From an uncultured Pseudomonadales bacterium (GTDB lineage: Bacteria > Patescibacteriota > Microgenomatia > UBA1400 > PJMF01), in the NCBI GenBank assembly GCA_964574595.1, contig CAZNOF010000002.1, positions 25,413 through 69,972 of the forward strand: DNA of 44,560 nucleotides, read 5' to 3'. Shown here piece after piece: positions 12,965 to 37,775 of the stretch. How positions within the stretch are numbered: the first letter of the stretch is position 1; every line of letters begins with the position of its first letter. Below the pieces are notes generated by a model. It was not told where the DNA came from and made no database searches. It was given only the letters and a program-made list of their open reading frames with translations. A program made the position numbers and the translations under genes.

Positions 12965-12965
12965 G

Positions 12966-18175: not shown

Positions 18176-18195
18176 GATGTGAATCTCCTTCAAAC

Positions 18196-18870: not shown

Positions 18871-18885
18871 GGTTTGTTATTCCTT

Positions 18886-22159: not shown

Positions 22160-22171
22160 AGAGTTTTGGTT

Positions 22172-23248
22172 ATGCCAGATACTAAGCCAAGAAATCTCAA
22201 TATCGATACCATTCGGATTCTTGCCACACTCATGATTCTGACTGCGCACATTACGGCGCTCATCTTTGCCAGGCCTGATTTCTTTGGGAAACCTTTCTGG
22301 TGGCTGAATCACATTGTCTTATCATTCTGCCGAATGGGAACCCCACTCTTTTTTATGATGAGTGGTTACTTAATTGGTGACAAAAAGAAAAGTCTAAGTA
22401 CCAGTACTCATCGGGCTATCTTCCGTTTAGGTGTACCATTTTTAGTCTTTTTTGTTGTAAGCAGTGTTGTCTTTGGTTCTATTCACTCAACCCCGTATTT
22501 CCCCAATCTATTAGATATCTTTTTCATGGGAGGTGGAAATTATCTGTACTTCTTAGTTGGACTGTTTATTCTGTACCTCATCAGTCCGTTACTTCAGAAA
22601 ATGGTTGAGTCACTCTCACAAACTGAACTGAAGTACACTCTATGTTTTCTTTGTGCTAATTCCGCATTTTATACGCTCGGCGCGTTTTTGACGTCTTCTA
22701 AAGCTGAACTAGGGAGTCCAACTTTTCTCTACTGGTTTTTAACTTTGGGTTACTTTTTGTATGGATCATATCTAAAAAAATATCCTCCTAAGAGCCTGCA
22801 GTTAAATGACTATTTATTGGTTTGTTCTCCGATTCTAGTTGGAATCTTTGGAACCTACTTGTTTCAAAAAATGTATCTAGAAAGTAGTTCGCAAATCTTT
22901 TTGCAGGTGGCAAACTATTTGCAAAGTTATCTTGGGATTACCGTCATGATCGCCTCACTTTATTTATTTAAAGTGCTTTTGGCTATGAATGTTTGGCAAA
23001 AGACGCAACAAAAGTATCATTCGGTAATTACCTACATATCAAAAAATACTTTTGGAATTTATCTCGTCCACATGATCTTTTTAGAGTACTTTCTGTTTAG
23101 AACGCCGCTAACAATCGACAATGGACCGTTCAATCCGGCGGTCATGATTGTGCTGATTTGGCTGACCCTTACCGTGGTAAGTTTTGGGACGAGTGTTTTG
23201 CTGGGGGTTGTTCCAATACTTAAAATGGCTGTCGGAAACACTGACTGA
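22172..23248 (+). CDS. Acyltransferase family 3 (OafA/YrhL-like O-acyltransferase)
   Basis: IDTIRILATLMILTAH, CRMGTPLFFMMSGY and TFGIYLVHMIF motifs; about 10 TM helices. Confidence 0.9.
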   Translation: MPDTKPRNLNIDTIRILATLMILTAHITALIFARPDFFGKPFWWLNHIVLSFCRMGTPLFFMMSGYLIGDKKKSLSTSTHRAIFRLGVPFLVFFVVSSVVFGSIHSTPYFPNLLDIFFMGGGNYLYFLVGLFILYLISPLLQKMVESLSQTELKYTLCFLCANSAFYTLGAFLTSSKAELGSPTFLYWFLTLGYFLYGSYLKKYPPKSLQLNDYLLVCSPILVGIFGTYLFQKMYLESSSQIFLQVANYLQSYLGITVMIASLYLFKVLLAMNVWQKTQQKYHSVITYISKNTFGIYLVHMIFLEYFLFRTPLTIDNGPFNPAVMIVLIWLTLTVVSFGTSVLLGVVPILKMAVGNTD

Positions 23249-23251: not shown

Positions 23252-23815
23252 TTAAATCAATTGAGCAAGAACGACAAACCGTTTGCTATCCATAAACCCG
23301 CTACATGTGTAAATGAGTACTGTGTCAGGTTTTGCTAAATTGAGAATATCTAGTTGAGTGGGCGAGACAGAGAAAACACTTTCTATCCGATACGTTTTTT
23401 TAGTGCCATCTTTATACGTTAGACTGACATGTTCTCCTATTTTTGATTGCCTCATTCTGCCTAAAAGTACTGGCCAGTCATGACCGAATAACACCAAGCC
23501 ATGATTGCTTGCTTCGGAGAATTGGGAAAGTAGTGACACTCCCTGCGTTGAGACCTGCCACTCACCATTCACAATGCTACTAGGCATAATTGGTAAGGCA
23601 ATTTTTTGATCGGGGATTTCTAATTTTTCTGGATTGTTCTCCGTAGAACTGCTTGCTTCAGATGCTTCATCAGGTGAGTTAGTTGTTTTAGCGTAGGCAT
23701 AGAGTGCGGAGTTGTTTGGCACAATGACAAAGTGTTCAATGGTTAAAAAGCCTGCTTTGAAGAGAAAAAATCCACTTAAAAAGAAGAACAAGATGGTGAG
23801 TAACTGTCTTTGCAA
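23252..23815 (-). CDS. Sortase (peptidase C60)
   Basis: N-terminal TM helix; catalytic His (LFGHDW), Cys (LIYTC) and Arg (SKRFVV) in the canonical order and spacing. Confidence 0.9.
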   Translation of the reverse strand: MQRQLLTILFFFLSGFFLFKAGFLTIEHFVIVPNNSALYAYAKTTNSPDEASEASSSTENNPEKLEIPDQKIALPIMPSSIVNGEWQVSTQGVSLLSQFSEASNHGLVLFGHDWPVLLGRMRQSKIGEHVSLTYKDGTKKTYRIESVFSVSPTQLDILNLAKPDTVLIYTCSGFMDSKRFVVLAQLI

Positions 23816-23837
23816 TGACGTACAGCTCCTTAGAAAA

Positions 23838-24485
23838 TTATTCTTTGGCTAATCTGTATGCAGTAAGTCCAAAAGCAATACCTAAGAATGCGTAAAGCAA
23901 AATCATTCGGTCATTCCCGGTCGCAGCTAAAGTGCTGGCGCCAAGAATATCCCCAACTGGGTGGTATGCACCTAAGTCACCAATCACATTTGAGTTTGAA
24001 CCAGAATTTGAGTTAGAGCTGGAACCAGAGTTCGAGTTAGAGGAAGAACTACCTGAATCTCCTGGAGTGTAGCCACCGGCGTCACCATGACAAGAATATG
24101 ATTGATTTGCCACTATATAAGGAGAATCATCTAATCCCCAAGCTAAACCACTTGGAACGTAAATCCAACCTAATTTTTGATAGTAGTTTATGGTTTCTTC
24201 TGAAGAATCTGTCAATTTTACCCAGTTACTTTGAATTCCATTATTACTATCACTTGGACAAAAACACTGAACCACGTGATTACTGTCAACTTGGTAAACT
24301 CGGTCACTGCCTGTATAGGTAGCACTGTCTCCAGCAATACCATGTGTGCCTTGGTTGAAGTCAGCAATGGTGGCTCCCACCGGTGATTGGCAAGAAAAAA
24401 TTGGCGGAGTTACGAGCGCAAGAGATTGTCGAGTTGAGAGGTGTAAAAACACCAAAGGGAGGATGAGTAAAAAGGCTCGTTTCAT
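23838..24485 (-). CDS. Sortase substrate with LAATG sorting signal
   Basis: Signal peptide; four-Cys N-domain; Ser/Asn/Gly linker; C-terminal ILGAST-LAATG followed by a hydrophobic helix and RLAKE. It sits 22 nt upstream of the sortase. Confidence 0.8.
   Translation of the reverse strand: MKRAFLLILPLVFLHLSTRQSLALVTPPIFSCQSPVGATIADFNQGTHGIAGDSATYTGSDRVYQVDSNHVVQCFCPSDSNNGIQSNWVKLTDSSEETINYYQKLGWIYVPSGLAWGLDDSPYIVANQSYSCHGDAGGYTPGDSGSSSSNSNSGSSSNSNSGSNSNVIGDLGAYHPVGDILGASTLAATGNDRMILLYAFLGIAFGLTAYRLAKE
23998..24042. repeat. Intragenic tandem repeat with 24-nt period encoding SSSNSNSG
   Basis: GAACCAGAATTTGAGTTAGAG (23998-24018) and GAACCAGAGTTCGAGTTAGAG (24022-24042), two mismatches. Confidence 0.7.
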
Positions 24486-24516
24486 AAAAACTTATAACAG
24501 TTTGTTATTTGTCGCG

Positions 24517-24525
24517 ATTATATCA
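24517..24525 (-). promoter_or_regulatory. Extended -10 promoter for the substrate-sortase operon
   Basis: TGaTATAAT on the minus strand, 31 nt upstream of ATG 24485. Confidence 0.55.
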
Positions 24526-24620
24526 AGAAAGTAGCTCTATTTCAATACCTTTTGATATAGTTAAATATAGTTAGAAAAATGGCATCGAGCCTATAAAAAG
24601 GTGACTAAAATGAGGGTACG

Positions 24621-25913
24621 TTATTGAAACAAATGACTGAACCAAGCATTCGCTTGATACCAAAAGTCTGGGTTCTCAGGTGTCAAAGAAATATGAGCAT
24701 TCTCGATCAGTTCTGAAACAGTAAATGTGGAGTTTTTGTATCCAGGGGCAGTTACCGTGATTGACTCATCTGTGTTGAGATAGGGAACTTGGAAGTTTCG
24801 ACCGACCGCGAGCACGTTATCTCGATCCGAGCGAAAGGTAACCTGATCAACTGTGTTTCCGGCAGTATTAGTAATGGTGCCAACTACAACTTTGGGAGTA
24901 TAGAATTTTTGAATCACCGCTACGGCTGGTTTGGCATCACCATGATCGTTCCAAATGGCGGTTGAACCACCCATATCCGTCCAGTAATTCAGTCCGACTA
25001 AGTGAGGATTCGCTGATAACAACTTGAGGACGTCTTTCACCCATTGAGCTTGTTCGTCGTCCGTCATGGTTCCGTGAATGTCAGGAATGGGAGCGCCAAA
25101 CTCGCCTAATACAACCTGCCCGCCACTACGGGAGGCAACTTCAGTGACATCGTCATTCAGTTGAGTTGGATCTTTTACATAGTGATCGATGACAACCAAG
25201 CCACCTAAAGCAGTCGTTGTCGGTTTGTCCATGACTAAGTCAGCTACATCTTTATTCATGGAATTGAAGTTGACTTGGATACGCTTATCTTGCGCTTTAA
25301 ATTCATCTGTGAGCATTTGATACTCGCGAATAAGGAATTCTCGGTGGCCTTGCACATCACCAGTCTTCCGAGGATCTCCTGGCCCTCCATTTTCACATTC
25401 CGGACAGGCAGAAAAAATATCTCCGTCTTCAAATAAATGCGGGTTCTTCTCTACAAATACTTTAGTCTTCTGGAAGTGTTCATCACGGGAAATAGTTGGA
25501 TAGCTAAACCAACCTTCCCAGCCGGACCAATTTCCTCTGAACCAGACGCGGAGATGGTACTTTCGAGCGGCAGTGACCCAAGTAGTGAGAACTGGCAAAA
25601 ATTCCTCATCATAGGGAGTGCCTATCGCAATATACGTCGCGCCAGTTTCAGAGATGGCTTTTGCTTGCTGATCAGAGATTGTTTGAAGTGTTTTAATGTC
25701 TGACAGATACTGTCTACTTGGATCTCTTGAAAACTTCATGGTATCAATGGACTGAAAGTTCCACCAGGAAGCTGTCTGTTGTGCAAATGACCGCTGGGTA
25801 GCCGATTTTTTCACACTAGTTCCTAGAATAAGCACGGCCATGACCGTGATCAGTAAAATCCCTAGATAGAATGATTGATGTAGTCTCACTAATAAATATT
25901 GTAGCAAATTCAC
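24621..25913 (-). CDS. Membrane-anchored glycoside hydrolase-like (clan GH-A type TIM barrel) protein
   Basis: N-terminal TM helix; candidate acid/base ECENG and nucleophile LGEFG; C-terminal carboxypeptidase-regulatory-like domain; last gene of the glycan operon. Confidence 0.65.
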   Translation of the reverse strand: MNLLQYLLVRLHQSFYLGILLITVMAVLILGTSVKKSATQRSFAQQTASWWNFQSIDTMKFSRDPSRQYLSDIKTLQTISDQQAKAISETGATYIAIGTPYDEEFLPVLTTWVTAARKYHLRVWFRGNWSGWEGWFSYPTISRDEHFQKTKVFVEKNPHLFEDGDIFSACPECENGGPGDPRKTGDVQGHREFLIREYQMLTDEFKAQDKRIQVNFNSMNKDVADLVMDKPTTTALGGLVVIDHYVKDPTQLNDDVTEVASRSGGQVVLGEFGAPIPDIHGTMTDDEQAQWVKDVLKLLSANPHLVGLNYWTDMGGSTAIWNDHGDAKPAVAVIQKFYTPKVVVGTITNTAGNTVDQVTFRSDRDNVLAVGRNFQVPYLNTDESITVTAPGYKNSTFTVSELIENAHISLTPENPDFWYQANAWFSHLFQ

Positions 25914-25915
25914 GT

Positions 25916-27544
25916 CTACTTCTGCTTTCCCAAGATTGGTTGCGTATTGAGGGTAGGAAGATATTCCGGTTTGAGTTCGTAAATATCAGCAAATGGATAG
26001 GATCTCACTAATGAATACTTATACAGTTGTTCTGACTTATTGACTAATTTAAATGTTTGGTCATTTGGGTCATTCGTTCTCATGACAATCCAGCGTGCCC
26101 AACGGTCAGGTTGAGTGGTGCCATTGAGCCAGTAAGTGCCGGTACCTTCGTGAATGAACTTCTTCATTGGTAACCCAGAAGAGAAAATAATTGCATCGTG
26201 AGAAGCGGCAGAAATCAACACAAAGCCCGGTGTGTTCCCAGCATGTTCTTGCAACCAGCCACTCACTTCCGTCACGTTCTTCTGACTTGATCCCACGCGA
26301 CCATCATCAACTGTCACGGCGTCAAAATTGACTATAGAAAAAAAGGTGACAAAGAGTAACAGACTAATAATCAGCCAACGTGATGCTTTCAGTTTGTCTA
26401 TTAAGACTCCGACAAAAATGGCAATGGAGGGAACCATCATGACACCATAGCGAACGTTAAACCACGTATTTCCATTCAAGCCCTGAATAAAGAGCACAGA
26501 GAAGCCAAAGTACAGAGCGATGATATTAAAAATCAAAGGTGCTAGGAGTGCAAGAGAAGCGAGTCGAATTGTCGATGATACTTTTTTGTTAACAAGCAGA
26601 ATGCAGGCACCCACAAAACTAAGTAAAACAGTGAACGTACCACTGTTATAAATCATGGCATACCAATAGGTGCTGATGGACTGACCCCAGTTCTTCTGTG
26701 TTATTAACACACCTGCATCGGCTAATTGCAGTTGTTGTGCATGGGCAGAGTAAGGACCAAAAGCAAAGTAGAGTGGGTCTTTAAAGATTGCTGCATTCCA
26801 AACTACCCACAAAAATATTCCCAGTCCAGCTAAACTACAAAACAAAATGAAAATACCCTCAGCCTTTTTAAGACCACCATTTCTAAATCCATGATATGAA
26901 ACAAGGATTGCTGACATCAAAAATAAGAACCAACCATCATAACGGATGAGCGTGGACAGCATAATCCAGAATGCGACTTTGACTAAATTCAGAATTGAAT
27001 CAGTTTCGTGATAATTGAGAAGTTCGTATACGGCAATAGTCATCGTGAAGATGAGCAAAAGCTCGGTCATGGCTGTTGATTGAAGGTACAAAATATTTAA
27101 ATTTGTGACAAAGATGGCTACACCAGCTAATCGGCCAATCATGCCCACTTTGAGTTTCTCTAAAATCCGATAAATTAAATATCCAGTAGCTACAAATGAG
27201 ATCATTGACTGAATTGCTCCTGATAAACCAGAGTGCCACATGAAGTCATTCCAAATTGTTAAGACCATCAATATATGAGGCAAAGGCAACCAGACAGAAC
27301 CTAACTGTGCCATACCAGGTTTGAGACCTTCAACTACCCGACGACCAATGTCTAGGTGAGATCGGGCATCGTTGTATGCTAGACCAAGTCCATTTCTATA
27401 GAAAATAATGTAACAAGCTACTGAAATAATTGATAAAAAGATCAACAAAAGCGGCACGGCGTGTTTTGTTAGGAAGCCTTGTAATAAAGTCCAAGGATTT
27501 TTAGGAATAGAAAATGAAGTGGTAGGGTTTAAGAGGCTAAACAT
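25916..27544 (-). CDS. GT-C (PMT/ArnT/GT39-like) polytopic glycosyltransferase
   Basis: First external loop YNDARSHLDIGRR...LGSVWLPLPH, AMTE and LIRYDGW motifs; about 11 TM helices; soluble C-terminal domain. Confidence 0.8.
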   Translation of the reverse strand: MFSLLNPTTSFSIPKNPWTLLQGFLTKHAVPLLLIFLSIISVACYIIFYRNGLGLAYNDARSHLDIGRRVVEGLKPGMAQLGSVWLPLPHILMVLTIWNDFMWHSGLSGAIQSMISFVATGYLIYRILEKLKVGMIGRLAGVAIFVTNLNILYLQSTAMTELLLIFTMTIAVYELLNYHETDSILNLVKVAFWIMLSTLIRYDGWFLFLMSAILVSYHGFRNGGLKKAEGIFILFCSLAGLGIFLWVVWNAAIFKDPLYFAFGPYSAHAQQLQLADAGVLITQKNWGQSISTYWYAMIYNSGTFTVLLSFVGACILLVNKKVSSTIRLASLALLAPLIFNIIALYFGFSVLFIQGLNGNTWFNVRYGVMMVPSIAIFVGVLIDKLKASRWLIISLLLFVTFFSIVNFDAVTVDDGRVGSSQKNVTEVSGWLQEHAGNTPGFVLISAASHDAIIFSSGLPMKKFIHEGTGTYWLNGTTQPDRWARWIVMRTNDPNDQTFKLVNKSEQLYKYSLVRSYPFADIYELKPEYLPTLNTQPILGKQK

Positions 27545-27545
27545 A

Positions 27546-30500
27546 TTAGTCGCGATTCCTATTTATAAACAGCGCCATAAATTGGGTGAGCAGAACGAAG
27601 CCAATTACTCCAATGATTACTTCTGTGAATTCCCAGGCAGTCAAATATTGATGTGCGTACTCTTGAAAAATAAATGATTTAGATTTATTAGCATTCAGCA
27701 TCTGCATATTTCTAGTAAAGGTGTATCGTTCCTGGACATGACTCATTGCTTCAATTGCTAATACCTCAACTTTTGGTGGGTTTCTATTTGAAGTAACGGC
27801 TCCGATAGTGTTAACACTCACGGCATACATACCGATTACGAGTATCGTAAATAAAATCAAAATATTTTTTCTCCAATGACTAATGACTTGTCCGAGTAAG
27901 ATGGCAAGGATGGAGTATGCCGGAATCATGTATCGTGAACCGAATGCCCAGCCTCCATATGGATCTCCCCACATAGAATAGAGGAGAATATCAGCCCCAA
28001 TCACTCCTGCCAATAAATTGGTGTAGCCAATATTTCTTTTAGATAATAGCAGAAGACCAATAAACCCAATTAAAATAATTGGTGTGTAGGTAATCATTCC
28101 GCGGTCTAAGCTCAGAAAATGTTCATAAAGTCCATTTGGTAACTGTCTTGTATCAAAGAAACCTAAAGCATTTCTACTTTCTGTTTTTGCTTCAGTCTTC
28201 TCGTTGTCAGGAATTTGTTGGTTCCCAATATCGACTATGTCTGGAGTATGGAGCTCGCTGACATTTTTTGCACTTGATGCAGTTCCAGCTAACTGGAACG
28301 GATTGCCATATGACATTTGATTGAAGTACATGAAGAAAGCGATTGGTAATACCATCACGGCCATTGTGACGAGTCCTGCCCAATGAATATTGATTTGATA
28401 TTTTTTGATTTTATCTTCAACATTGACCACTCTGCCTAATGCAAACAGACCAATTGGGAACATCAAGAATAAATTGGGGTTATCTACTGAAATAGAAATA
28501 GCACAGCAGAACCAGACAATGGCTAGTGCCCAAGGACTTTTGTGTCTTAGCAACGTATAGATTGAGAAAAGAATCAAGAATGTTGAAATGTGATGCTGAT
28601 ATAAAGTTACTGCATATGGAAATGCGGGTGTGGCAAATAAAAAGAACATGGCGGCGATGGTGGCTGCACTAGGTCTAGCACCAAGTCTAATTGCAATGGC
28701 ACGAATCAGCACGGCATTAAATACGGCAAACAATGAGATGACTGCAAACGAACCAACCTGAGAGTAACCTAGTGTTTTGCCAAGAATGTACCCGGGCATC
28801 ACAATATATGAGACCGTTGGAGCAAATAGCGAAACAAAGTAGCCATTCGCTGTGGCAACGTCTGGTAAAGCAAATTTCGCAATTGGAAGTGAGAAGTGGA
28901 ATGAATGATCTTCCGCTAATGAGTAGGTGAGCGCAAATCGGCCACGTTCAGGAGAAAGTTCAAGTGGGCCATTATCCATCCAGCGATCTGAATTTAATTC
29001 TGAGCTGGTTGGGTTGCCTTTGAGTCCACGAAGGGCCGCAACTAAAATGAGCATGCAAATCAGTGCAAACCAAAGGGTGCCCGTTTTTTTAAAGAATGAG
29101 ATTGGCAATAAAAATACTTTCAGTGCCGCATTTATTTTTTCAGAAACGTTCTTTTTGAGTCGAATAATTGACATGAAGACTGACCATAAGCGTAAACCAG
29201 TAGGTGTTAAGAGTGTTTTTAAGAAGCCAGGACTCATATTATTTTCAATCGAAATTCGATGGAAAAGATACTTGTCGTCTGCTTTAGAAAATGGTCTGTC
29301 ATCAACCGTGAAGGCTGCTTCGAACTCTGCATTTTTGACAGCCGCCATAGTAATGTCCGAATAGTATCCTTTGGGATACGCAAAGTATCTTGTTTGGATC
29401 TTTGTTCTTTTTTCAAAATCTTTTTTTCCTCTCCCAATTTCGGCCGAAAGTCCGATTGGTGACAGAGATGACAGATCAGCATGAGTTGCAGTGTGAAATC
29501 CAATTTCCCAGTCTTCTTTTGCTAAAACGCGTAACTCCTTATCGTCTAGCAGTGGTAACTGATTATTCATTTCATCACGTTGAGCTTTTTCAGGATTGCC
29601 AACCATAAAAATAGTTGCGTTTTTTCGTAGTTTCTTTAACAGTGGAAAGGCGAACTCTATAACGCTCTGGTATCCATCATCAAATGTAATAGCCACTCCT
29701 GAGCCAGATTTTACTACCTGACTTAACTTACTTATTTTGAAGGTTTTATTGAGAAATGAGATCTGTTCTGAAAACTCATCAGCATCTGTAGAGAATTGCC
29801 AGTTATTCAACCCAATATTGTGATAGCAAAGGATAATTGCTTTCTCGGTTGGCTTATACAAAAATGGCAGAAGCTTGTAGATTGTTTCAAGTAAAGTAAA
29901 AGCGATAGTGTATATCTTCACAAATACTGATTTGGTTGGAACAAAATCAAAAAGTGATGTCTTTGCTGATTCTGACATGTGACTATTCTTTGCATCCAAG
30001 GCTAGTGATTTTAGTGTGCCGTAAATTGAGAGTGCTTTCCATCGTCTTTTCTCTTCGGAAGATTTTAAGAAAAGTGAGCAAAAATCTACTGCTCTATTGA
30101 TCCCTAATTGCTTTTGGTAAAGTCTTGGGATTTGTGCCAGATCATAAAGGGGATCAGAAAAAACGGCGTTTTCCCAATCTGCCAACAGCAAAGTCTTTCC
30201 ACCCACTAAGATATTGTCAGAATCAAGATCACCATGAATGAGTGCTGGTTGAATTCTCTTAAAGAGAGTTGGTGTGTACAGTCGCACGAAGACGATTGTG
30301 GACCTTAGAGTTTGTAACAAGAGGCTGGGGTTTCTAACACCAGCTTGTAGTCCGTATAAAATGCCTCTGAGAAGCAATGAAAAGGTACTTTGAGTTGCAA
30401 TCTGCTTTGCCTCCTCAGTCTTGTGGAGCTTCATTTGAATATTTGTGAGGAATCCGAAGATGTCTACCAGAGATTTGATTACAACATCTGGTTCAGAGAA

Positions 30501-30815
30501 TGTTAATTTATCGCCAGCAACGAGTTCTGTACTAAAAGTTGTTGAGTTTTTCTCAACATGTTCAGATACGAGCTGAGGAGACTGGACGGAAAAGGCTCTC
30601 CCTTTCCATGGACTCAATTTCCCAACAGCTGATAACGCATGTAACTCATTGAGCAAGAAGTAATTTTCAATATCTGGTAACAAAAAAGTATGTCGTTTAG
30701 TAAACACTTTTTTTGTGGCACTCTTTTGTAATTTTCCTAATTCTACTCGCGATTTTTTATCAACTCTGAGGATTCGATTAATGATGCTGGTAAGGTGGAG
30801 GATATTAGAAAACAT
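27546..30815 (-). CDS. 1089-aa fusion: APH/choline-kinase-like + CE4 polysaccharide deacetylase + GT-C membrane domain
   Basis: Kinase HGDLDSDNIL...LADWE...DPLYDL; CE4 CYHN, ITFDDGY, FHTATH, FAYPKG; then about 520 aa of polytopic GT-C-like sequence (ELSPERGRF, WGDPYGGWAFGSRYMIP). Confidence 0.85.
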   Translation of the reverse strand: MFSNILHLTSIINRILRVDKKSRVELGKLQKSATKKVFTKRHTFLLPDIENYFLLNELHALSAVGKLSPWKGRAFSVQSPQLVSEHVEKNSTTFSTELVAGDKLTFSEPDVVIKSLVDIFGFLTNIQMKLHKTEEAKQIATQSTFSLLLRGILYGLQAGVRNPSLLLQTLRSTIVFVRLYTPTLFKRIQPALIHGDLDSDNILVGGKTLLLADWENAVFSDPLYDLAQIPRLYQKQLGINRAVDFCSLFLKSSEEKRRWKALSIYGTLKSLALDAKNSHMSESAKTSLFDFVPTKSVFVKIYTIAFTLLETIYKLLPFLYKPTEKAIILCYHNIGLNNWQFSTDADEFSEQISFLNKTFKISKLSQVVKSGSGVAITFDDGYQSVIEFAFPLLKKLRKNATIFMVGNPEKAQRDEMNNQLPLLDDKELRVLAKEDWEIGFHTATHADLSSLSPIGLSAEIGRGKKDFEKRTKIQTRYFAYPKGYYSDITMAAVKNAEFEAAFTVDDRPFSKADDKYLFHRISIENNMSPGFLKTLLTPTGLRLWSVFMSIIRLKKNVSEKINAALKVFLLPISFFKKTGTLWFALICMLILVAALRGLKGNPTSSELNSDRWMDNGPLELSPERGRFALTYSLAEDHSFHFSLPIAKFALPDVATANGYFVSLFAPTVSYIVMPGYILGKTLGYSQVGSFAVISLFAVFNAVLIRAIAIRLGARPSAATIAAMFFLFATPAFPYAVTLYQHHISTFLILFSIYTLLRHKSPWALAIVWFCCAISISVDNPNLFLMFPIGLFALGRVVNVEDKIKKYQINIHWAGLVTMAVMVLPIAFFMYFNQMSYGNPFQLAGTASSAKNVSELHTPDIVDIGNQQIPDNEKTEAKTESRNALGFFDTRQLPNGLYEHFLSLDRGMITYTPIILIGFIGLLLLSKRNIGYTNLLAGVIGADILLYSMWGDPYGGWAFGSRYMIPAYSILAILLGQVISHWRKNILILFTILVIGMYAVSVNTIGAVTSNRNPPKVEVLAIEAMSHVQERYTFTRNMQMLNANKSKSFIFQEYAHQYLTAWEFTEVIIGVIGFVLLTQFMALFINRNRD

Positions 30816-30816
30816 A

Positions 30817-31725
30817 TTAGTGAGTGGATTCGGCAGTGAACCATTTCATCTTATAGTGAGTAATGATATATGAACTAAAAGGTAAGGATAAGAGGTTAAT
30901 CAAGGTAATTGTGATGACTCCCAAAGGGTTTTTAATAAAAGATTTGCCGCACTCAAGGAGATATCTTTTTTTATCTCTCGCAGCTTCATGATCAATAATT
31001 TCTGGGAAATAGGGTCTCAGTTCTGTGGTAAACGCAGCTGGTTGAGATCTTAATATCTGCTTCATATAGTCTTTGAAGTTGAGTGGCAATTTATAAAGAA
31101 TGTGCGCTTTTTTTGCCCACATGAATTTGTAGCCTAGTTGTTTACAGAGTAAGTACAAGTAAGTGTCTTCGTTGATGATCTGAGGGAACTTAATCTGCTC
31201 CAGAAAACTTCTTCGTAAAGCAAATGTTTGTCCACAGCAGTAAAGATTGTCACCATTGTTCATACTTCTTCGCATGGCATCAAATACTTCAAAAGAGGAA
31301 TACACAGCTTTCTGAACGAAAGTAACTGGCGTTTCAGGTTTGACGTTTCCGGCCACATACATCACATTAAGATCTGCAAACTGTTTGATGAGCTCATCAA
31401 TTGTTACGACATTTCCAAGCCGAACGTCTGCATCTACCATGACCAAAAAGTCACCTTTAATTTCTTTAAACATTTGCTGTAGGCGAGCTGTCTTACCCAA
31501 TCGTTTCTTACCATCAATCACCTTAATAAGAGCTGATCGAACTGAGTTTGCTTCAGAGACCGTGTTATCTGTGCAACCATCGCAATAAACGAGTATCTCT
31601 GTAACCTCCCAGTGTTTAGATTTTTTTTGCGCAAGAATATCATTAAGAATATTTTTAATCCCGCGCTCTTCATTAAAAGCTGGTATTCCGATGCTGATGA
31701 GTTTTTTCTGTTCAATTTTAGACAT
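30817..31725 (-). CDS. GT2 glycosyltransferase (type B, copy 2)
   Basis: IGIPAFNEE, CDGCTD, DAD and NED motifs; ends KWFTAESTH. Start moved to ATG 31725, overlapping the upstream stop. Confidence 0.9.
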   Translation of the reverse strand: MSKIEQKKLISIGIPAFNEERGIKNILNDILAQKKSKHWEVTEILVYCDGCTDNTVSEANSVRSALIKVIDGKKRLGKTARLQQMFKEIKGDFLVMVDADVRLGNVVTIDELIKQFADLNVMYVAGNVKPETPVTFVQKAVYSSFEVFDAMRRSMNNGDNLYCCGQTFALRRSFLEQIKFPQIINEDTYLYLLCKQLGYKFMWAKKAHILYKLPLNFKDYMKQILRSQPAAFTTELRPYFPEIIDHEAARDKKRYLLECGKSFIKNPLGVITITLINLLSLPFSSYIITHYKMKWFTAESTH

Positions 31726-32635
31726 ATTGTTTTGACGATCGGATCTGTTGCCAAACGTGTTTATCATTTTTTGACTGTAGTAAAGGCATGCTGACTCTTT
31801 GAATAAGCTGCAATGACAAACTTGCAATCATCCAGAATGGATCTCTAACCAAATTAGTAAGATACATCCTTATTTTAAGAGATCTTGGAACTGCATATTC
31901 TACCTCAACTGCTTGTCCAAAATAACCCTCAATATCATTTGCTGAGGCAAAAAATCTTGATGTTTGAAGCAGAAAATCATGGAGAGTACTCGGAACTTGA
32001 TAATAGACAATTGCATTCTTAGCAAATCTAAATAAGTGCTTTCTTTGTGTGACAAAGAAATACATGTAGTGATCATCAGCTACGAGTTTTTTAGGTAACT
32101 TCGTTCCCTTGATCACAGAAGTTCTAATGGCCGAAATACATCCAGGGTTGTTATGAACGTTGTGTCCCTCGCGAATTTGTTCTGTAATACTTCGCCAAAT
32201 TAAGTCATATTTGGCTAATGCAGTTTGAACAAATGTAGTGCCTTTGGTGGGTATGTTTCTTCCACCAACAAGCCCCACGTTAGAGTCTTTGAACGGTTTG
32301 ATGAGTTTTGAAATTAGAAATTTATCAGTGATTTTTACATCAGCATCTAAATTGACAGTGATATCACTGTTAGTAGATTGGTAAAAATTATTTAATCTGA
32401 GTGCTTTGCCTTTTCTCTTACCGTCATTTTGGATTAAAATCTCAGGATGCTTTTTAGCAAATTGGCGGGCTAATTCTTCAGTCTTGTCAGTGCAACCATC
32501 GCAAATGACCTCTATGACATCTAATTTGTAGCCTAGCTGCTTTTGATTCACTAATGCTCGCAAGAGCTGCAGAATTGTTGTTTCTTCATTATGAGCAGGG
32601 ATGACAATAGAGACGGTGAGCAAGTGTTGTTTCAT
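31718..32635 (-). CDS. GT2 glycosyltransferase (type A, copy 2)
   Basis: VIPAHNEE, CDGCTD, DAD and ADDHY motifs; ATG 32635 preceded by AGGA. Confidence 0.9.
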   Translation of the reverse strand: MKQHLLTVSIVIPAHNEETTILQLLRALVNQKQLGYKLDVIEVICDGCTDKTEELARQFAKKHPEILIQNDGKRKGKALRLNNFYQSTNSDITVNLDADVKITDKFLISKLIKPFKDSNVGLVGGRNIPTKGTTFVQTALAKYDLIWRSITEQIREGHNVHNNPGCISAIRTSVIKGTKLPKKLVADDHYMYFFVTQRKHLFRFAKNAIVYYQVPSTLHDFLLQTSRFFASANDIEGYFGQAVEVEYAVPRSLKIRMYLTNLVRDPFWMIASLSLQLIQRVSMPLLQSKNDKHVWQQIRSSKQYV

Positions 32636-32642
32636 GATAGTC

Positions 32643-34346
32643 CTATGCAAGTCCCGTAGAGGTATATCGTTCTTTCAACTGGAGGATCTTTACAAACAAT
32701 GATTCCAACCAAAGTCCTGTCTCTGTTAAGTATACAGCTAGGAATTTGTCATCAACTTGCCCTTCAAGTGGAATTCTATGGATCAAGAAAGGATCGGAAT
32801 TTGAACCGGCTGGTTTCCCATCAACTGTAAAGGCATTTTTAAACTTAGCCTCCTTCACGACGTTAATGACATCTTCTGAGTAATACCCACGAGGATAGGC
32901 AAAAAACTTCAACTTAAGTCCAAGGCGCTTTTCAAGTTGTCTCTTTCCATCCTTTATTTCGCTCTTCAATTCTGGAGCTGATAAATGTGCAAGATCAGCA
33001 TGGGTTTTGGTGTGGAACCCAATCTCCCAACCATTGCTGATGAGTTTTTTAATTTGCGTATCTGTGGCAAGAGGCAGGATATTGTCGAGTTCTTCACGGT
33101 TTGGTTCTTTGGCATTCCCTATCATGAACACAGTAGCTGGTTTCTTCATTTTCTTAAGGACAGGTACGGCATATTTTGTCAGGTCTGCATAACCATCATC
33201 AAATGTAATCGCAACACCATTTCGATTTTTTAGTAAATTCGATAGTGAGGTAATTTCGAATTTTGTATTTAAAAATTCCAACTGCTTTTTGAAAGAGTCA
33301 GGTGGAGTTGTAAATCTCCATTTGTCATTTCCTACATTGTGATAGCACAAAATCATGGGCTCAGAAATGGGCTTGTTTGCAAACGGAAATATCTTATAGA
33401 GCATTTCCAATGCTGAGTAAGAAAAATAAAAAATTCTTTCATATAAGGACTTAGATGGTTCCTCGACTCTTTGCTCTTTGAAGGTATTAAGGCAAGCCAG
33501 GGCAGATGCAAACATATGTGTCTGTTTCGGCTTAATAGCAAGTGATTGAAGTGTTCCGTAGTAAGAAAGAGCAGTCCATCTTGCTCGATCAAAGGTGCTT
33601 TCCAGTTGTTCAAGACAGAAGTTAGTAGCTTCTTCCATACCTATAAACCGACCGTAAAGCCGTGGCACTTGTGCCAAGTCATAGAGAGGATCACTTAAAA
33701 CGGCGTTTTCCCAGTCTGCCAATAAAAGATGCTTGCCGCGGATCATGATATTGTCTGGATCAATGTCTCGGTGAGTCAGTACCATTGGAATCTGCTGAGA
33801 AAGAGCAGGTGAGTACTTTATAGAGAAGTCCCAAGTCATTTTAAAACAATCAACTGCAAGGCGAGGGTTTTTTACTATTGCTTGTGCCCCATACAATAAA
33901 CCACTCCAGTAAATATCTTTTGGTGTTCTAGTTCCTAGCAAAGGCTCTTGTTGGATTCTTCTTCTTTGTAAATAGTTTATATAGCCAATGACATCTTTTA
34001 GAGCAGGTAAGAAGAGCTTCTTTTCTGAATCGGCTAGTTTCTTGCCATCAAAAAATGAAGTAGAAAAAAGTAACTTGTGAGAAGTAATCGTTTTGTTAAC
34101 TAGTTTTGGAATTTCTACGACGAAGTTCTTTCCTTTCCAGGGCGAGAGCGATTCTAATTGTTGTAATTCTTTTAACTCATTCTGAAGATAGTACCTATCG
34201 ATATCTAACAAGATCCCAGTGTGTTTTTTCCAAAGCAACTTTTGTGAACGTGATTTTGTTTTTTGTGTGACAAATACACGCTCAGACCTATCCCTTGAGA
34301 GAAGAGCATTCACTTTTGCTGAAAGATGCAGTAAGTTTACGTACAT
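32643..34346 (-). CDS. 567-aa fusion: APH/choline-kinase-like + CE4 polysaccharide deacetylase
   Basis: HRDIDPDNIM...LADWE...DPLYDL; CYHN, ITFDDGY, FHTKTH, FAYPRG; no signal peptide. Confidence 0.88.
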   Translation of the reverse strand: MYVNLLHLSAKVNALLSRDRSERVFVTQKTKSRSQKLLWKKHTGILLDIDRYYLQNELKELQQLESLSPWKGKNFVVEIPKLVNKTITSHKLLFSTSFFDGKKLADSEKKLFLPALKDVIGYINYLQRRRIQQEPLLGTRTPKDIYWSGLLYGAQAIVKNPRLAVDCFKMTWDFSIKYSPALSQQIPMVLTHRDIDPDNIMIRGKHLLLADWENAVLSDPLYDLAQVPRLYGRFIGMEEATNFCLEQLESTFDRARWTALSYYGTLQSLAIKPKQTHMFASALACLNTFKEQRVEEPSKSLYERIFYFSYSALEMLYKIFPFANKPISEPMILCYHNVGNDKWRFTTPPDSFKKQLEFLNTKFEITSLSNLLKNRNGVAITFDDGYADLTKYAVPVLKKMKKPATVFMIGNAKEPNREELDNILPLATDTQIKKLISNGWEIGFHTKTHADLAHLSAPELKSEIKDGKRQLEKRLGLKLKFFAYPRGYYSEDVINVVKEAKFKNAFTVDGKPAGSNSDPFLIHRIPLEGQVDDKFLAVYLTETGLWLESLFVKILQLKERYTSTGLA

Positions 34347-34347
34347 A

Positions 34348-35253
34348 TTAATGAGTGGACTCCGCCGTAAACCACTTCAAATTATAATGAGAAATTACAT
34401 GAGAAATGAACGGTTTACAGCCCAAATTAATGAGAATTGCAGTTAAGACAGCTAATGGATCTTTCAGAAGAACATTTATTACTTCATTGCGATATAGTTT
34501 GCTATCTCGATTAAGCTCTTCATCAATTAAACTTGGAAAGAGAGGACCTAGTTCAACCTGCAGTGCCGTTGGTTCAGATCGCATAATTTGTTTTATGTAA
34601 TCTCTAAAATTTAATGGCAGTTTATAGTACATGATTGCTTTTTGAGCCCAAACAAAGTCCCAGCCCTGTTGCTTGCAAAATAGATAAATGTAAATATCTT
34701 CATTTACAATATTCGGGAAGTTGATACTTCTGGCAAACTGTTTGTCCAAAGCAAGACAGGCAGCGCAACAATATAAATTGTTTCCATTATTTTGTTTTGT
34801 TCTGACTTGGTCATACACAGTGAACGTTGAGTACACAGCTCGCTGCACAAACGTCTTTGGCGCTTCAGCTCTTATATTTCCTGCAACCAACTTAATTTTT
34901 GGATTTGAGAATTTTTTTACAATTTCAGAAAGCACGTACTTACCATCTAGTCTCAAGTCAGCATCGATTGTGATGATGAGGTCACTATTAAAATCCTGAA
35001 ACATTTGTTGTAGACGATGTGTCTTTCCTAGACGTTCTTTACTATCTAAAACTTTAATTCTTCGATCCTTAATTCCTTTGGCAATCTTGGCTGTATCATC
35101 AGAACAGCCATCGCAATAGACGAGAATTTCTTTCAATTTCCATGAAGAGTTTTCTTTTTGACTTAAAATATCCTGTAGGACGAGAGCAATTCCATTTGCT
35201 TCGTTATAAGCGGGGATTCCCACACTGACTTGAATTATTTTATTGCTTTTCAT
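34348..35253 (-). CDS. GT2 glycosyltransferase (type B, copy 1)
   Basis: VGIPAYNEA, CDGCSD, DAD and NED motifs; ends KWFTAESTH. ATG 35253 forms an ATGA overlap with the upstream stop. Confidence 0.9.
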   Translation of the reverse strand: MKSNKIIQVSVGIPAYNEANGIALVLQDILSQKENSSWKLKEILVYCDGCSDDTAKIAKGIKDRRIKVLDSKERLGKTHRLQQMFQDFNSDLIITIDADLRLDGKYVLSEIVKKFSNPKIKLVAGNIRAEAPKTFVQRAVYSTFTVYDQVRTKQNNGNNLYCCAACLALDKQFARSINFPNIVNEDIYIYLFCKQQGWDFVWAQKAIMYYKLPLNFRDYIKQIMRSEPTALQVELGPLFPSLIDEELNRDSKLYRNEVINVLLKDPLAVLTAILINLGCKPFISHVISHYNLKWFTAESTH

Positions 35254-36158: not shown

Positions 36159-36167
36159 AGGGTATCT

Positions 36168-37771: not shown

Positions 37772-37775
37772 AAAA

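Follow-up and report, generated by a model that had tools for sequence, protein, structure and literature searches.

A recurrent kinase-deacetylase-GT-C fusion protein in a putative cell surface glycosylation locus of CPR bacteria

Introduction

How could two soluble sugar-modifying enzymes and a membrane-embedded glycosyltransferase come to be encoded as one polypeptide, and on which side of the membrane, and on which molecule, would each of them act? This question is raised by an open reading frame (ORF) in a 44,560-nucleotide stretch of DNA from an uncultured Patescibacteria (CPR, Microgenomates-type) bacterium (hereafter, the window). A sequence-only reading had described the ORF as a single uninterrupted frame joining a kinase, a deacetylase, and a GT-C-like domain, and knew of no described protein with this architecture; our literature search likewise found no paper describing it. 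The same reading had proposed that a lipid-linked donor is tailored in the cytoplasm and that this tailoring is physically coupled to its transfer on the outer face.

Results

The long frame held up (Table 1). Its first 555 amino acids were modeled by AF2 as one compact two-domain unit (pLDDT 93.9, pTM 0.84) in which a complete kinase fold of the APH-like type is followed by a CE4 fold. The Pfam matches are APH at aa 188-246, with 30.1 bits (cutoff 23.2), and Polysacc_deac_1 at aa 372-500, with 79.3 bits (cutoff 23.1). The proposed paralogy with a free-standing 567-aa protein is borne out by 43% identity over aa 1-555. The kinase domain holds the beta3 Lys (K40), the alphaC Glu57, H194-x-D196-x4-N201, and D213 (DWE), which are invariant across the family, and its Foldseek matches are APH(3'), APH(2''), and capreomycin and macrolide phosphotransferases. 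Equally invariant are the key residues of the CE4 domain, H332, D379-D380 (TFDDG), H441/H445 (HTATH), R476-x-x-x-Y-P, and R520, and its closest structures are PplD (6dq3; TMt 0.80), IcaB, PgaB, and BA0330. Sequence searches of Pfam, GT83, and PDB gave no match for the C-terminal half; the significant Foldseek matches of its AF2 model (pLDDT 92.3, pTM 0.92) are all GT-C enzymes (ArnT, EmbA/B, STT3/PglB, PMT, ALG6/9, and DPY19), the best being ArnT (5ezm). This module has more than 1,100 free-standing homologs of ~520 aa each, and 242 GT-C loci were found across CPR genomes. In its first external loop, E619 is invariant and position 623 is E or D among 107 sequences. An acidic loop motif directly after TM1 is common to all GT-C enzymes (PMC6801728), and we infer that this loop is the candidate catalytic acidic motif of the module. 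Judged from their residues, all three modules carry intact catalytic motifs.

Table 1. Location of the fused gene, its parts, and its neighbors in the window
Feature	Position	Strand	Basis or remark
Whole fused ORF (kinase + CE4 deacetylase + GT-C)	27546..30815	minus	ATG start, uninterrupted, 1089 aa + stop
APH-fold small-molecule kinase domain, aa ~1-295	29931..30815	minus	Pfam APH, AF2 + Foldseek
Inter-domain helix, aa ~296-320	29856..29930	minus	Moderately hydrophobic, not TM-competent
CE4 (NodB-homology) de-N-acetylase domain, aa ~321-535	29211..29855	minus	Pfam 79 bits, closest structures
Fusion junction: deacetylase C-terminal helix (aa 536-555) and K-rich linker (aa 556-579)	29079..29210	minus	
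GT-C-fold polytopic glycosyltransferase domain, aa 580-1089, ~13 helices	27549..29078	minus	AF2, Foldseek
First external loop motif GPLELSPERGR, aa 616-626	28938..28970	minus	Invariant columns, 107 sequences
Two GT2 genes directly upstream of the fusion (proximal [GT2a][GT2b][KIN-CE4] copy)	30817..32650	minus	Pfam Glycos_transf_2
Free-standing kinase-deacetylase paralog, 567 aa	32643..34346	minus	43% identity, same Pfam domains, in duplicated block
Distal GT2 gene pair, called ORFs overlapping	34348..36158	minus	
Upstream operon part: 1594-aa megaprotein, GT4, FdtA, DegT-family aminotransferase	36168..43683	minus	Pfam
M542, polytopic membrane protein downstream of the fusion	25916..27544	minus	Possibly second GT-C
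Downstream block: D430, D215, sortase	23252..25913	minus	Pfam Sortase, conservation

The end of the free paralog and the starts of free-standing GT-C homologs both map to aa ~556-575 of the fusion, which places the basic linker noted earlier, K-rich and ~25 aa long, between the two termini: the join is end to start. In the syntenic genome GCA_040384245.1 (locus L001; 66% nucleotide and 68% amino acid identity), the same frame is open, with no indel near the junction, while the other two frames are full of stops. The linker itself is 30% identical between the window and L001, and the members of a second fused lineage (L036 and P0224) are 83% identical in amino acids overall and 35% in the linker, also without indels. 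Since the frame has been kept open in two diverged pairs, these comparisons argue that the fusion is translated as one protein. The long ORF could instead be expressed by re-initiation at Met548 or nearby, result from read-through that is recent and either neutral or deleterious, or stem from a faulty assembly. Such a reading could draw on homologs that are mostly split, and on an in-frame methionine near the junction both in the window (aa 548) and in L001 (aa 549); the earlier reading had itself named, as grounds for giving up the fusion, that all homologs be split and an internal start be used. Most homologs are indeed split, but fused ones exist, in four independent occurrences from different assemblies, and survival of the frame across a fast-evolving linker together with the intact catalytic residues of all three modules makes this explanation very unlikely. 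Met548 has no Shine-Dalgarno sequence before it, although this is weak evidence, as most real starts of the same operon have none either. Of three low-depth 151-bp contigs from a related strain, none spans the junction. We conclude that the fused frame is not an artefact and is most probably translated as a genuine single polypeptide.

Nor is the architecture a one-off of a single genome: exhaustive searching, together with a survey of genomes, turned up these three domains joined in this way in four unrelated lineages. Each fused lineage is nested among split relatives, its nearest relatives being free-standing proteins, and the linkers are unrelated between lineages. In the split relatives the gene order is identical, and the two genes overlap by ATGA. 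These sequence comparisons indicate at least four separate origins of the fusion, each from a pair of neighbor genes that overlapped. The best explanation is read-through of the ATGA stop/start overlap in a conserved envelope-glycan operon. Fused genes are rare (2/69 unbiased loci, ~3%). Given that most relatives use separate ATGA-overlapping genes, the fusion appears to be an easy, dispensable evolutionary event.

Next to the origin of the fusion stands the question of where its parts reside. As the sequence-only reading had it, there is no signal peptide, and no TM-competent segment precedes TM1 (aa 580-598). The best 19-mer of the inter-domain helix has a dG of ~+5.5 kcal/mol (family median, +7.6; 0/55 members at or below 1), and this helix is modeled at high pLDDT inside the compact two-domain unit. 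CE4-only orthologs have no signal peptides, and CE4-KIN, GT2-CE4, and GT2-CE4-KIN fusions exist without TM segments between their domains. Based on the lack of TM-competent segments and on these fusions, the kinase and deacetylase domains are predicted with high confidence to be cytoplasmic. It would be a different matter if the kinase were inside and the CE4 domain were held outside between two weak TM helices. The two most hydrophobic segments of the N-terminal half (aa ~297-319 and ~536-554) do flank the CE4 domain exactly, its close structural relatives are all external enzymes, and in PplD an external CE4 domain comes after a TM helix (PMC8807736). However, at +5.5 and +6.5 kcal/mol (family medians, ~+7.5), compared to -1.6 to +1 for real TM helices, the flanking segments are far from TM-competent, the N-terminal one is wholly absent from some CE4-only orthologs, and neither the single compact unit modeled for aa 1-555 nor the TM-free fusions agree with an external CE4 domain, which we therefore hold to be extremely improbable. 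For the GT-C module, whose relatives have their N terminus inside (PMC6801728), we predict the canonical N-in topology with the conserved acidic first loop external, in agreement with the outward-facing active site assumed before.

The surroundings of the fused gene bear on what it might act upon. The proximal and distal GT2 pairs are 51-53% identical, as parts of a duplicated [GT2a][GT2b][KIN-CE4] block. The proximal GT2s weakly match DPMS, ArnC, and GtrB over a generic GT-A core, and the neighboring GT2s lack the two TM helices found at the C terminus of polyprenyl-phosphate glycosyltransferases of the GtrB/ArnC type. M542, whose gene lies directly downstream of the GT-C gene in 74 of 80 loci and which is 65% identical to its ortholog in L004, has weak matches to LA_3751 and PMT_2; an hhalign comparison with the GT-C family was not significant, and M542 is possibly a second GT-C. 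Farther downstream, D430 is a TM-anchored external protein found in 70/81 loci, and D215 (44/81 loci) is secreted, with four Cys, a G/S/T/N-rich tract, and an LAATG sorting signal; the LAxTG motif is present in 40 of the 44 D215 homologs, whose conserved Asn does not lie within a conserved N-x-S/T sequon. A sortase gene occurs in 39/81 loci. On the upstream side, the megaprotein has the order GT2-GT2-MOP (Wzx-like flippase)-GT4, and FdtA, a 3,4-ketoisomerase, makes up an amino-sugar pathway in the operon together with the DegT-family enzyme; these upstream genes recur in L001, L006, L007, and L008. The operon encodes at least eight GT domains, and we found in it no small GtrA/ArnE-type flippase gene, no priming phosphoglycosyl transferase, and no nucleotidylyltransferase.

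Across 69 unbiased loci, the GT-C gene is directly adjoined by or fused to CE4, KIN, or GT2 in 34, and KIN and CE4 are absent from 28; fusions of GT2 to GT-C exist as well. Upstream of the GT-C gene, 27 of these loci have CE4 only, 19 have only PIG-L, a cytoplasmic de-N-acetylase non-homologous to CE4 that fills the CE4 slot in other genomes, 3 have both, and 20 have neither. The two are nearly mutually exclusive (odds ratio 0.12, p = 7e-4, with kinship among loci ignored), suggesting that PIG-L replaces CE4 and that cytoplasmic de-N-acetylation is part of the pathway of the GT-C enzyme. Together with the recurrent fusions, the conserved adjacency, and the network of fusions among GT2, CE4, kinase, and GT-C, this genomic pattern indicates that the three modules serve one cell-surface glycosylation pathway found across CPR bacteria.

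Discussion

Which molecule this pathway tailors can be approached by analogy. In the Arn pathway, a GT2 enzyme loads an N-acylated amino sugar onto a lipid carrier, a cytoplasmic CE4 enzyme deacylates it, and after flipping, a GT-C enzyme transfers it outside (ArnC, ArnD, ArnE/F, and ArnT, in this order; PMC12690121); three-component systems of GT2, flippase, and GT-C provide a further precedent (PMC11127046). We tentatively favor a comparable order of events, in which a lipid-carried amino sugar would be tailored inside, flipped, and transferred outside. A neighboring GT2 would load an N-acetyl-hexosamine-type sugar onto a polyprenyl phosphate carrier in the inner leaflet, the CE4 domain would strip the N-acetyl group, as do ArnD on UndP-Ara4FN and PIG-L on GlcNAc-PI, and the APH-like kinase would phosphorylate a hydroxyl of the resulting amino sugar. 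A flippase, for which the MOP domain of the megaprotein is the sole candidate in the operon, would then bring this modified lipid-linked sugar to the outer leaflet, where the GT-C domain would hand it to an extracytoplasmic acceptor. This might be a glycopolymer of the wall or the Ser/Thr-rich, LAxTG-anchored surface protein encoded alongside, but presumably not lipid A in a CPR cell. The fusion would tether the tailoring enzymes to the membrane beside the transferase and fix their stoichiometry; it is not needed for the chemistry, since most relatives use separate proteins. Hence, the tailoring and transfer enzymes are physically coupled insofar as they are fused, but this does not amount to channeling, because a flipping step must intervene.

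The Arn-like order is favored by the structural matches of the GT-C half, of which ArnT is the best. Differences are nevertheless considerable: Arn proteins are all separate and include no kinase, no relation to ArnD is detectable for the CE4 domain, the GT-C module is only 12% identical to ArnT, the GT2s are without the TM helices of ArnC, and no ArnE/F-like gene is present. The last two points and the lack of a detectable relation to ArnD count against the Arn-like order, as does the closeness of the CE4 domain to extracytoplasmic enzymes acting on polymers or linkage units, and the many GT2/GT4 genes with a Wzx-like domain would suit a lipid-linked oligosaccharide at least equally well. With the same enzymes and topology, the tailored molecule might thus be a polyprenyl-diphosphate-linked oligosaccharide, assembled by the GT2/GT4 enzymes with the Wzx-like domain as its flippase, or a glycolipid acceptor handled in a GPI-like order (PIG-A, PIG-L, flip, GT-C extension); in that case, en bloc transfer of the oligosaccharide, as by PglB/STT3, or its extension outside would fall to the GT-C module (and M542). 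Though doubtful taken by itself, we grade this possibility as nearly as likely as the Arn-like one. It would account for the number of GT domains, the MOP/Wzx domain, the FdtA and DegT genes, and the co-encoded sortase and Ser/Thr-rich LAxTG protein, and it is consistent with GT2s that have no GtrB-type TM helices, with the missing small flippase, and with STT3 and PglB ranking among the top fold matches. It also suits the kinship to PplD, an enzyme that removes the acetyl group from GlcNAc in the linkage unit of a lipid- or wall-linked glycan. The replacement of CE4 by PIG-L points the same way, as the prototype substrate of PIG-L, GlcNAc-PI, later becomes a GT-C acceptor in GPI biosynthesis. 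On the other hand, ArnT is a monosaccharide-donor enzyme, the GT-C module does not have the external acceptor-binding domain of PglB/STT3, GT2 fusions to GT-C and to CE4 better suit a one-sugar carrier logic, and both the missing priming enzyme and the D215 Asn outside a conserved sequon are at odds with an oligosaccharide. Of the original proposal, then, the cytoplasmic side and the shared pathway stand, whereas the lipid-linked donor is one of two comparably likely substrates.

A third possibility is that the kinase-deacetylase acts on a soluble precursor, either a nucleotide sugar or a free N-acetyl-hexosamine in salvage, and that the fusion brings co-expression or membrane localization only, with no shared lipid-linked substrate. 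Soluble kinases of small molecules typically have the APH fold; NahK and AmgK are APH-fold anomeric kinases that salvage free N-acetyl-hexosamines, CPR bacteria are auxotrophs scavenging building blocks, and the loci devoid of KIN and CE4 mark both as accessory. We consider this unlikely, however, given that a membrane enzyme became the fusion partner on four independent occasions, that CE4 or PIG-L lies immediately upstream of GT-C in many genomes, that GT2-CE4(-KIN) fusions put the deacetylase after glycosyl transfer rather than before nucleotide activation, and that the operon has no nucleotidylyltransferase.

Parts of the fusion resemble further known systems. In GPI biosynthesis, de-N-acetylation of lipid-linked GlcNAc takes place on the cytoplasmic face, before GT-C mannosyltransferases (PIG-M/V/B) act on the other face; PIG-L-family genes in the CE4 slot (19-22/69 loci) recall this order, but there the de-N-acetylated lipid is the acceptor and not the donor, the pathway is eukaryotic with neither kinase nor fusion, and the window itself has CE4, not PIG-L. 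The kinase shares its fold and full catalytic motif set with aminoglycoside, macrolide, and capreomycin phosphotransferases, which phosphorylate hydroxyls of amino-sugar-containing molecules, although at TM-scores of only 0.5-0.6 and 12-17% identity, and it differs in its glycan-biosynthesis context, which gives no sign of an antibiotic substrate, and in its fusion to CE4 and GT-C. WbdD, the chain terminator of E. coli O9a, is a cytoplasmic, membrane-associated, bifunctional protein that includes a kinase domain and acts on a lipid-linked glycan ahead of export. It is a methyltransferase-kinase (PMC11127046). The partners of its kinase are thus a methyltransferase and a coiled-coil ruler instead of a deacetylase or GT-C, and WbdD is not among the top 50 fold matches. 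PplD, IcaB, and PgaB, the closest relatives of the deacetylase in sequence and structure (PplD profile E-value, 5e-49), have identical metal-binding and catalytic residues but work outside the cytoplasm, their substrates being completed polymers or the wall linkage unit (PMC8807736), whereas the CE4 domain here is predicted to be cytoplasmic and is fused to a kinase. Finally, GtrA/GtrB/Gtr*, CsbB/GtcA/YfhO, and GacI/J/K/L likewise combine GT2 and GT-C, with a lipid-linked sugar decorating a surface glycan or polymer (PMC11127046), and here, too, GT2 genes adjoin the GT-C gene or, in some genomes, are fused to it. In contrast to these systems, there is no GtrA-type flippase, the GT2s are not of the GtrB type, and a kinase and a deacetylase, covalently fused to GT-C, come in as extra cytoplasmic tailoring enzymes after the GT2 step and before the GT-C step. 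The main value of the fused protein is as a key to reading a CPR-wide locus that comprises the GT-C, its 542-aa partner, D430, the LAxTG protein, and the sortase.

RESULTS

A recurrent fusion of kinase, deacetylase and GT-C modules

The fusion gene is a single ATG-started ORF of 1089 aa within an operon of co-directional, tightly packed genes. Its residues 1 to 555 are 43% identical by BLASTP to a free-standing 567-aa kinase-deacetylase of the same operon, and in a multiple alignment both the end of this free paralog and the start of free relatives of the C-terminal half fall at fusion residues ~556 to 575, so the join is an end-to-start one through a lysine-rich linker of ~25 residues. The uninterrupted fused frame with a basic linker claimed by the sequence-only reading was thus borne out, on the minus strand, by the ORF listing, Pfam, BLASTP and the alignment.

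The sole other full-length homolog in an index of 5.8 billion proteins is P0002, encoded in a fully syntenic operon on a 584-kb contig of GCA_040384245.1 (locus L001). The two genes share 66% nucleotide identity and differ by one indel, a single codon at aa 131. The linker is their least conserved stretch (30% identity over aa 541 to 570), the frame is open in both, and the two other reading frames at the junction are full of stops in this pair. When 1.84 billion representatives were scanned exhaustively by HMMER with the kinase-deacetylase profile, ~60 clusters of the two-domain protein emerged, together with three further proteins of ~1,100 aa each (P0224, P0226 and P0252) that run on into the same GT-C module. 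The GT-C profile, run against GTDB species representatives, detected two loci with the fusion, L036 and L062. By similarity ranking, the fused proteins form four lineages: the window with L001, L036 with P0224, L062 (the same as P0252), and P0226. In every lineage the nearest relatives are free-standing, and the linkers are unrelated between lineages; within the L036/P0224 pair, identity is 83% overall and 35% in the linker, with no indel. The open but diverging linkers and the four lineages with free-standing relatives argue, as far as sequence comparison goes, that the fusion is genuine, recurrent and maintained, yet rare (2/69 unbiased loci). The search for the same fusion in independent genomes was therefore positive, and the possibility that all homologs are split does not apply, although the split form prevails. 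In the closest split relatives (L006 and L007), the two genes overlap by ATGA, so that a one-base change suffices for fusion, which is an easy and dispensable evolutionary event.

That separate translation or an artefact, instead of one fused protein, underlies the long frame seems very unlikely to us in view of the four lineages. A start-site analysis that included Met548, an in-frame methionine near the junction, showed that most true starts of the operon have no Shine-Dalgarno sequence and rely on stop/start coupling. One soil metagenome run with a related strain yielded three 151-bp contigs, none of them over 29040-29190, and a second read-run search with 9 kb matched no run.

Predicted identity of the kinase and deacetylase modules

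Pfam matched an APH segment at aa 188 to 246 (PF01636; 30.1 bits versus a cutoff of 23.2) and a Polysacc_deac_1 (CE4) segment at aa 372 to 500 (PF01522; 79.3 bits versus 23.1), and the AF2 model of aa 1 to 555 has two domains (pLDDT 93.9, pTM 0.84). In Foldseek searches the first domain matched APH(3')-IIa, APH(2''), other aminoglycoside, capreomycin and macrolide phosphotransferases, and CcrZ. Its kinase catalytic set is complete and conserved family-wide (beta3 Lys K40, alphaC Glu57, H194-x-D196-x4-N201 and D213). Profile, modelled bilobal fold and motif set together point to a member of the APH/choline-kinase-like phosphotransferases.

The second domain resembles in fold the CE4 de-N-acetylases PplD, BA0330, IcaB and PgaB, of which PplD is the best solved relative by profile (E 5e-49). 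Residues H332, D379, D380, H441, H445 and R520 are invariant across the family; with its metal-binding Asp-His-His triad and catalytic Asp/His kept, the module is predicted to be a CE4/NodB-homology (PF01522) enzyme. ArnD was absent from the NCBIfam matches and from the PDB profile matches at E<=1e-3, which rules out membership in the ArnD family; ArnD and this module are alike in pathway logic only.

A separate GT-C family in Patescibacteria

The C-terminal half matched no Pfam family even at E<=10 and, with a 107-sequence profile, no PDB sequence; its one weak NCBIfam match, to the putative glycosyltransferase LA_3751/LA_3752, scored 38 bits against a cutoff of 200. Its AF2 model (aa 556 to 1089; pLDDT 92.3, pTM 0.92) places it at fold level, as judged from the model, in the GT-C superfamily: every Foldseek match with a probability of about 1.0 is a GT-C enzyme, at 9 to 15% identity, the best being ArnT (5ezm; E 1.4e-4, TM 0.44) and the others including EmbA/B, STT3, PglB, Pmt4, ALG6/9, DPY19 and AftA/D. 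Neither Pfam nor the PDB profile supports membership in the ArnT/PMT_2/GT83-GT39 sequence families, and the NCBIfam score is far below cutoff; the module thus appears to represent a separate, unnamed GT-C family. With >1,100 clusters at 90% identity, themselves at 50 to 65% identity, and 242 species-level loci, this family occurs only in Patescibacteria/CPR genomes; these belong mainly to Microgenomates groups, and others to Moran-, Kaiser-, Dojka- and Saccharibacteria.

GT-C enzymes are polytopic (11 to 14 TM helices), with a cytoplasmic N terminus and a large first external loop that carries a conserved acidic motif just after TM1 (PMC6801728). The GT-C half has about 13 helices, and its loop at aa 599 to 690 after TM1 holds the invariant positions E619, E/D623 and D652. 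E619 belongs to an invariant motif of this loop, GP[LF]ELSP[ED]RG, which is a candidate for the catalytic acidic motif.

The deacetylase is predicted to be cytoplasmic

The N-terminal half has neither a signal peptide nor a TM-competent segment, and the GT-C module must be oriented N-in, given a signal-less extension of 555 aa that contains an ATP-dependent kinase. All close relatives of the CE4 domain, however, are external enzymes, and PplD itself consists of a TM helix followed by the CE4 domain (PMC8807736). Because the two most hydrophobic segments of the N-terminal half flank the CE4 domain, and PplD, IcaB and PgaB are external, one may imagine that these two moderately hydrophobic helices span the membrane, leaving the kinase inside and the deacetylase outside. 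We consider this extremely improbable. Biological-hydrophobicity sums, computed with values of the published Hessa scale, are +5.5 and +6.5 kcal/mol for the two helices, as against a range of -1.6 to +1 for the true TM helices. Across the family the medians lie near +7.5, and a score of <=1 occurs in 0/55 and 2/55 members.

Moreover, the modules also occur as permuted fusions with no TM segments between domains, namely, CE4-KIN (the reverse order), GT2-CE4 and GT2-CE4-KIN, where KIN is the kinase (P0271, P0323, P0253, P0260, P0261, P0266, P0304 and P0320). These fusions place CE4 in the same compartment as an ATP-dependent kinase and a nucleotide-sugar GT2, i.e., the cytoplasm, and we regard them as decisive. 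Orthologs that consist of CE4 alone lack a signal sequence, and in some of them the N-terminal segment is missing altogether. Hydrophobicity over 55 + 59 family members and the TM-less permuted fusions led us to reject an outside CE4, and the topological inference made earlier, of cytoplasmic soluble enzymes, stands. A PplD/IcaB/PgaB-type extracytoplasmic deacetylase would carry a signal peptide, lipobox or TM anchor; the module has no signal and no TM-competent segment. A CE4 of PplD/PgaB type is therefore predicted to be cytoplasmic here, which would widen the range expected for that subfamily; we found no description of a cytoplasmic PplD-type CE4 in the literature or profile libraries tried.

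Organization of the operon

Features of the window discussed in the text (operon entries in gene order)
Feature	Coordinates	Strand	Description
Whole operon	23252..43683	-	From 43683 down to 23252
Operon gene 1	38899..43683	-	1594-aa GT2-GT2-MOP(Wzx-like)-GT4 protein
Operon genes 2 to 4			GT4, FdtA, DegT aminotransferase
Operon gene group 5			GT2a, GT2b, KIN-CE4 (567 aa)
Free-standing KIN-CE4	32643..34346	-	567-aa paralog of the fusion N-terminal half
Operon gene group 6			GT2a', GT2b', KIN-CE4-GT-C
Fusion ORF	27546..30815	-	KIN-CE4-GT-C, 1089 aa
Tandem duplication	30817..36158	-	Three-gene block
GT2 ORF	30817..31827	-	Called TTG start
GT2 ORF	34348..35370	-	Called TTG start
Operon gene 7	25916..27544	-	M542, membrane protein
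Operon gene 8	24621..25913	-	D430
Operon gene 9	23838..24485	-	D215
Operon gene 10	23252..23815	-	Sortase
Acyl_transf_3 gene	22166..23248	+	Membrane O-acyltransferase
tRNA gene	15161..15247	-	Left part of the window
tRNA gene	16068..16139	+	Left part of the window

The operon contains a tandem duplication of a three-gene block made up of GT2a, GT2b and the kinase-deacetylase, the copies of which are 51, 53 and 43% identical. It is present in the window and L001 and missing from the closest outgroup L006; the duplication predates the split between window and L001. Only the GT-C-proximal copy, the more diverged of the two, is fused. Two GT2 ORFs, called mechanically from TTG, reach ~110 to 120 nt into the upstream genes; the L001 orthologs have 300 to 305 aa, so the true starts are probably downstream ATGs. 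The 1594-aa protein is a second multi-enzyme fusion of the operon, likewise spanning cytoplasm and membrane, and is kept in other CPR genomes (1594 aa and 51% identity in L008, 1602 aa in L001 and 1587 aa in L007).

The GT2s of the operon carry zero or one marginal C-terminal hydrophobic helix and match DPMS, ArnC and GtrB weakly, over the GT-A core only; the GtrB/ArnC type, which combines GT-A with two C-terminal TM helices, is thus not supported for them. No small multi-TM ORF and no flippase of the GtrA, GtcA or ArnE/F type was found in the 23- to 44-kb region, where nothing resembles a flippase except the MOP/Polysacc_synt domain of the 1594-aa protein.

Downstream of the fusion, M542 is highly conserved (65% identity to distant genomes) and polytopic, with an external C-terminal domain of ~120 aa. 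Weak PMT_2 and LA_3751 matches hint at a second GT-C; no PDB or Pfam match was found, and hhalign against the GT-C family profile was not significant. D430 pairs an N-terminal TM helix with a large external domain and has no Pfam, NCBIfam or PDB sequence match. D215 (215 aa) combines a signal peptide with four conserved Cys and a G/S/T/N-rich low-complexity tract; its LAATG sorting signal precedes a TM segment and a basic tail. The LAxTG signal recurs in 40/44 homologs. Asn127 is conserved, but N-x-S/T occurs in 16/44, which rules out an N-glycoprotein with a conserved sequon. D215 is a candidate for accepting or anchoring the glycan.

Convergent with the operon end lies a membrane Acyl_transf_3 gene, the product of which could O-acylate the same surface glycan. 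A link to the recently described CPR Pam pilus operon was ruled out, Pam being a different system without sortase or glycosylation. Toward the left of the window, G+C content is higher, at 0.44 to 0.49 in 1 to 7 kb and 15 to 19 kb versus ~0.38 to 0.40 in the operon, and two tRNA genes lie there. Proteins encoded in 1..19000 mostly have no Pfam family, the exceptions being a WxLIP peptidoglycan-binding domain, a CarboxypepD_reg domain and a GDSL lipase.

A conserved GT-C locus across CPR genomes

We surveyed 80 species-level loci with HMMs built from our own alignments; the 81-locus scan set included loci found earlier as well as the window. GT-C and M542 are neighbors in 74/80 loci, and downstream of this pair follow D430 (70/81), a D215-type small secreted protein (44/81) and a sortase (39/81). 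A GT2 lies within 6 kb upstream of GT-C in 58 of 69 loci, and GT2 and GT-C are fused in L008, L084, P0025 and P0126. GT-C is thus genetically linked to GT2, in the manner of a three-component system. Directly upstream of GT-C, the 69 loci have GT2 (18, plus 1 fused), CE4 (9, plus 2 fused, with the kinase), Acetyltransf_6 (9), PIG-L (6), the kinase (4) or another gene (21).

PIG-L/LmbE is a cytoplasmic de-N-acetylase unrelated to CE4. Within 6 kb, 27 of the 69 loci have CE4 only, 19 PIG-L only, 3 both and 20 neither, so that one or the other is present in 71%; this near mutual exclusion has an odds ratio of 0.12 (p 7e-4, in a statistic that ignores phylogeny). We read it as non-orthologous displacement, suggesting that cytoplasmic de-N-acetylation is integral to the pathway feeding GT-C.

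The slot upstream of GT-C holds PIG-L in many CPR genomes (L010, L026, L071 and others), and a polysaccharide pyruvyl transferase (L025) and an epimerase (L014) are also seen in it. An Acetyltransf_6 GNAT often accompanies PIG-L, is sometimes fused to it (L026) and never occurs without it. The unnamed gene that adjoins GT-C in 35 loci is not the 1594-aa megaprotein, since a mega-type GT4 is adjacent in 5 loci only; it is mostly PIG-L and/or Acetyltransf_6. Among loci L009 to L088, many TPA-assembled MAG records are titled "uncultured Gammaproteobacteria," "Pseudomonadales" or "Bdellovibrionales"; these titles look unreliable, gene content and closest relatives being those of Patescibacteria.

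DISCUSSION

The architecture, intact active sites, topology and genetic coupling described here, obtained by computation or confident prediction, lead us to propose, tentatively, an Arn-like mechanism for the fused enzyme and its neighbors. A GT2 would put a HexNAc-type sugar on a lipid carrier, CE4 would take off the N-acetyl group, the APH-like kinase would phosphorylate the resulting amino sugar, and the tailored product would be flipped and then transferred outside by the GT-C domain. This order of events has known counterparts. One is GPI biosynthesis, with PIG-L, a flip and then GT-C; others are the Arn pathway (PMC12690121) and three-component glycosylation systems (PMC11127046). Within our scheme, the order in which CE4 and the kinase act is inferred, as are the lipid carrier, the substrate of the kinase, the acceptor and the flippase. 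The operon shares a GT2-linked GT-C with the Arn/Gtr three-component systems but has neither their GtrB/ArnC-type GT2 nor their small flippase.

These two differences also bear on the main rival, which leaves the topology unchanged but takes the tailored molecule to be a lipid-linked oligosaccharide or an acceptor. The many GTs and the Wzx-like domain of the operon, its GT2s devoid of GtrB-type TM helices, and a 23- to 44-kb region devoid of a small flippase are all in its favor; even so, we hold it to be somewhat unlikely. That the kinase-deacetylase acts instead on a soluble precursor appears less likely again, and indeed improbable.

Neither the domain families, three in number, nor the logic of the pathway, which follows the Arn, Gtr and GPI pathways, is new, and no concept is overturned. 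The sequence-only reading knew of no described protein with this architecture, and the literature and profile libraries that we tried likewise describe neither the covalent kinase-CE4-GT-C architecture nor the present GT-C family and the CPR locus conserved around it, although absence is not proof. The network of fusions (kinase with CE4 and GT-C, GT2 with GT-C, GT2 with CE4 and optionally the kinase, and CE4 with the kinase), together with the displacement of CE4 by PIG-L elsewhere, suggests a candidate function for this large GT-C family, which has no Pfam, CAZy-type or PDB relative: it would use, on the outer face, a lipid-linked sugar that was de-N-acetylated in the cytoplasm. The network thereby offers a first way into the function of a very widespread envelope locus of CPR bacteria, among the most conserved envelope loci of Patescibacteria. 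The surfaces of these organisms mediate their symbiotic lifestyle and, to our knowledge, are almost unstudied. Compact and confidently modelled, the fused protein is useful for studying how cytoplasmic tailoring is coordinated with outside transfer of a lipid-linked sugar.

It is tempting to speculate further, although we think it rather unlikely, that the fusion marks an undescribed CPR-wide glycosylation machine, in which one protein with three active sites would work on one lipid-linked substrate from both membrane faces. Its core would consist of the new GT-C family, the 542-aa partner, D430, the LAxTG surface protein and the sortase. Cytoplasmic de-N-acetylation and phosphorylation would then yield a zwitterionic HexN-phosphate unit on lipid, which the same polypeptide would set on the cell surface from the opposite side of the membrane. 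If so, this would be a new kind of surface modification, one that could matter for CPR episymbiosis.
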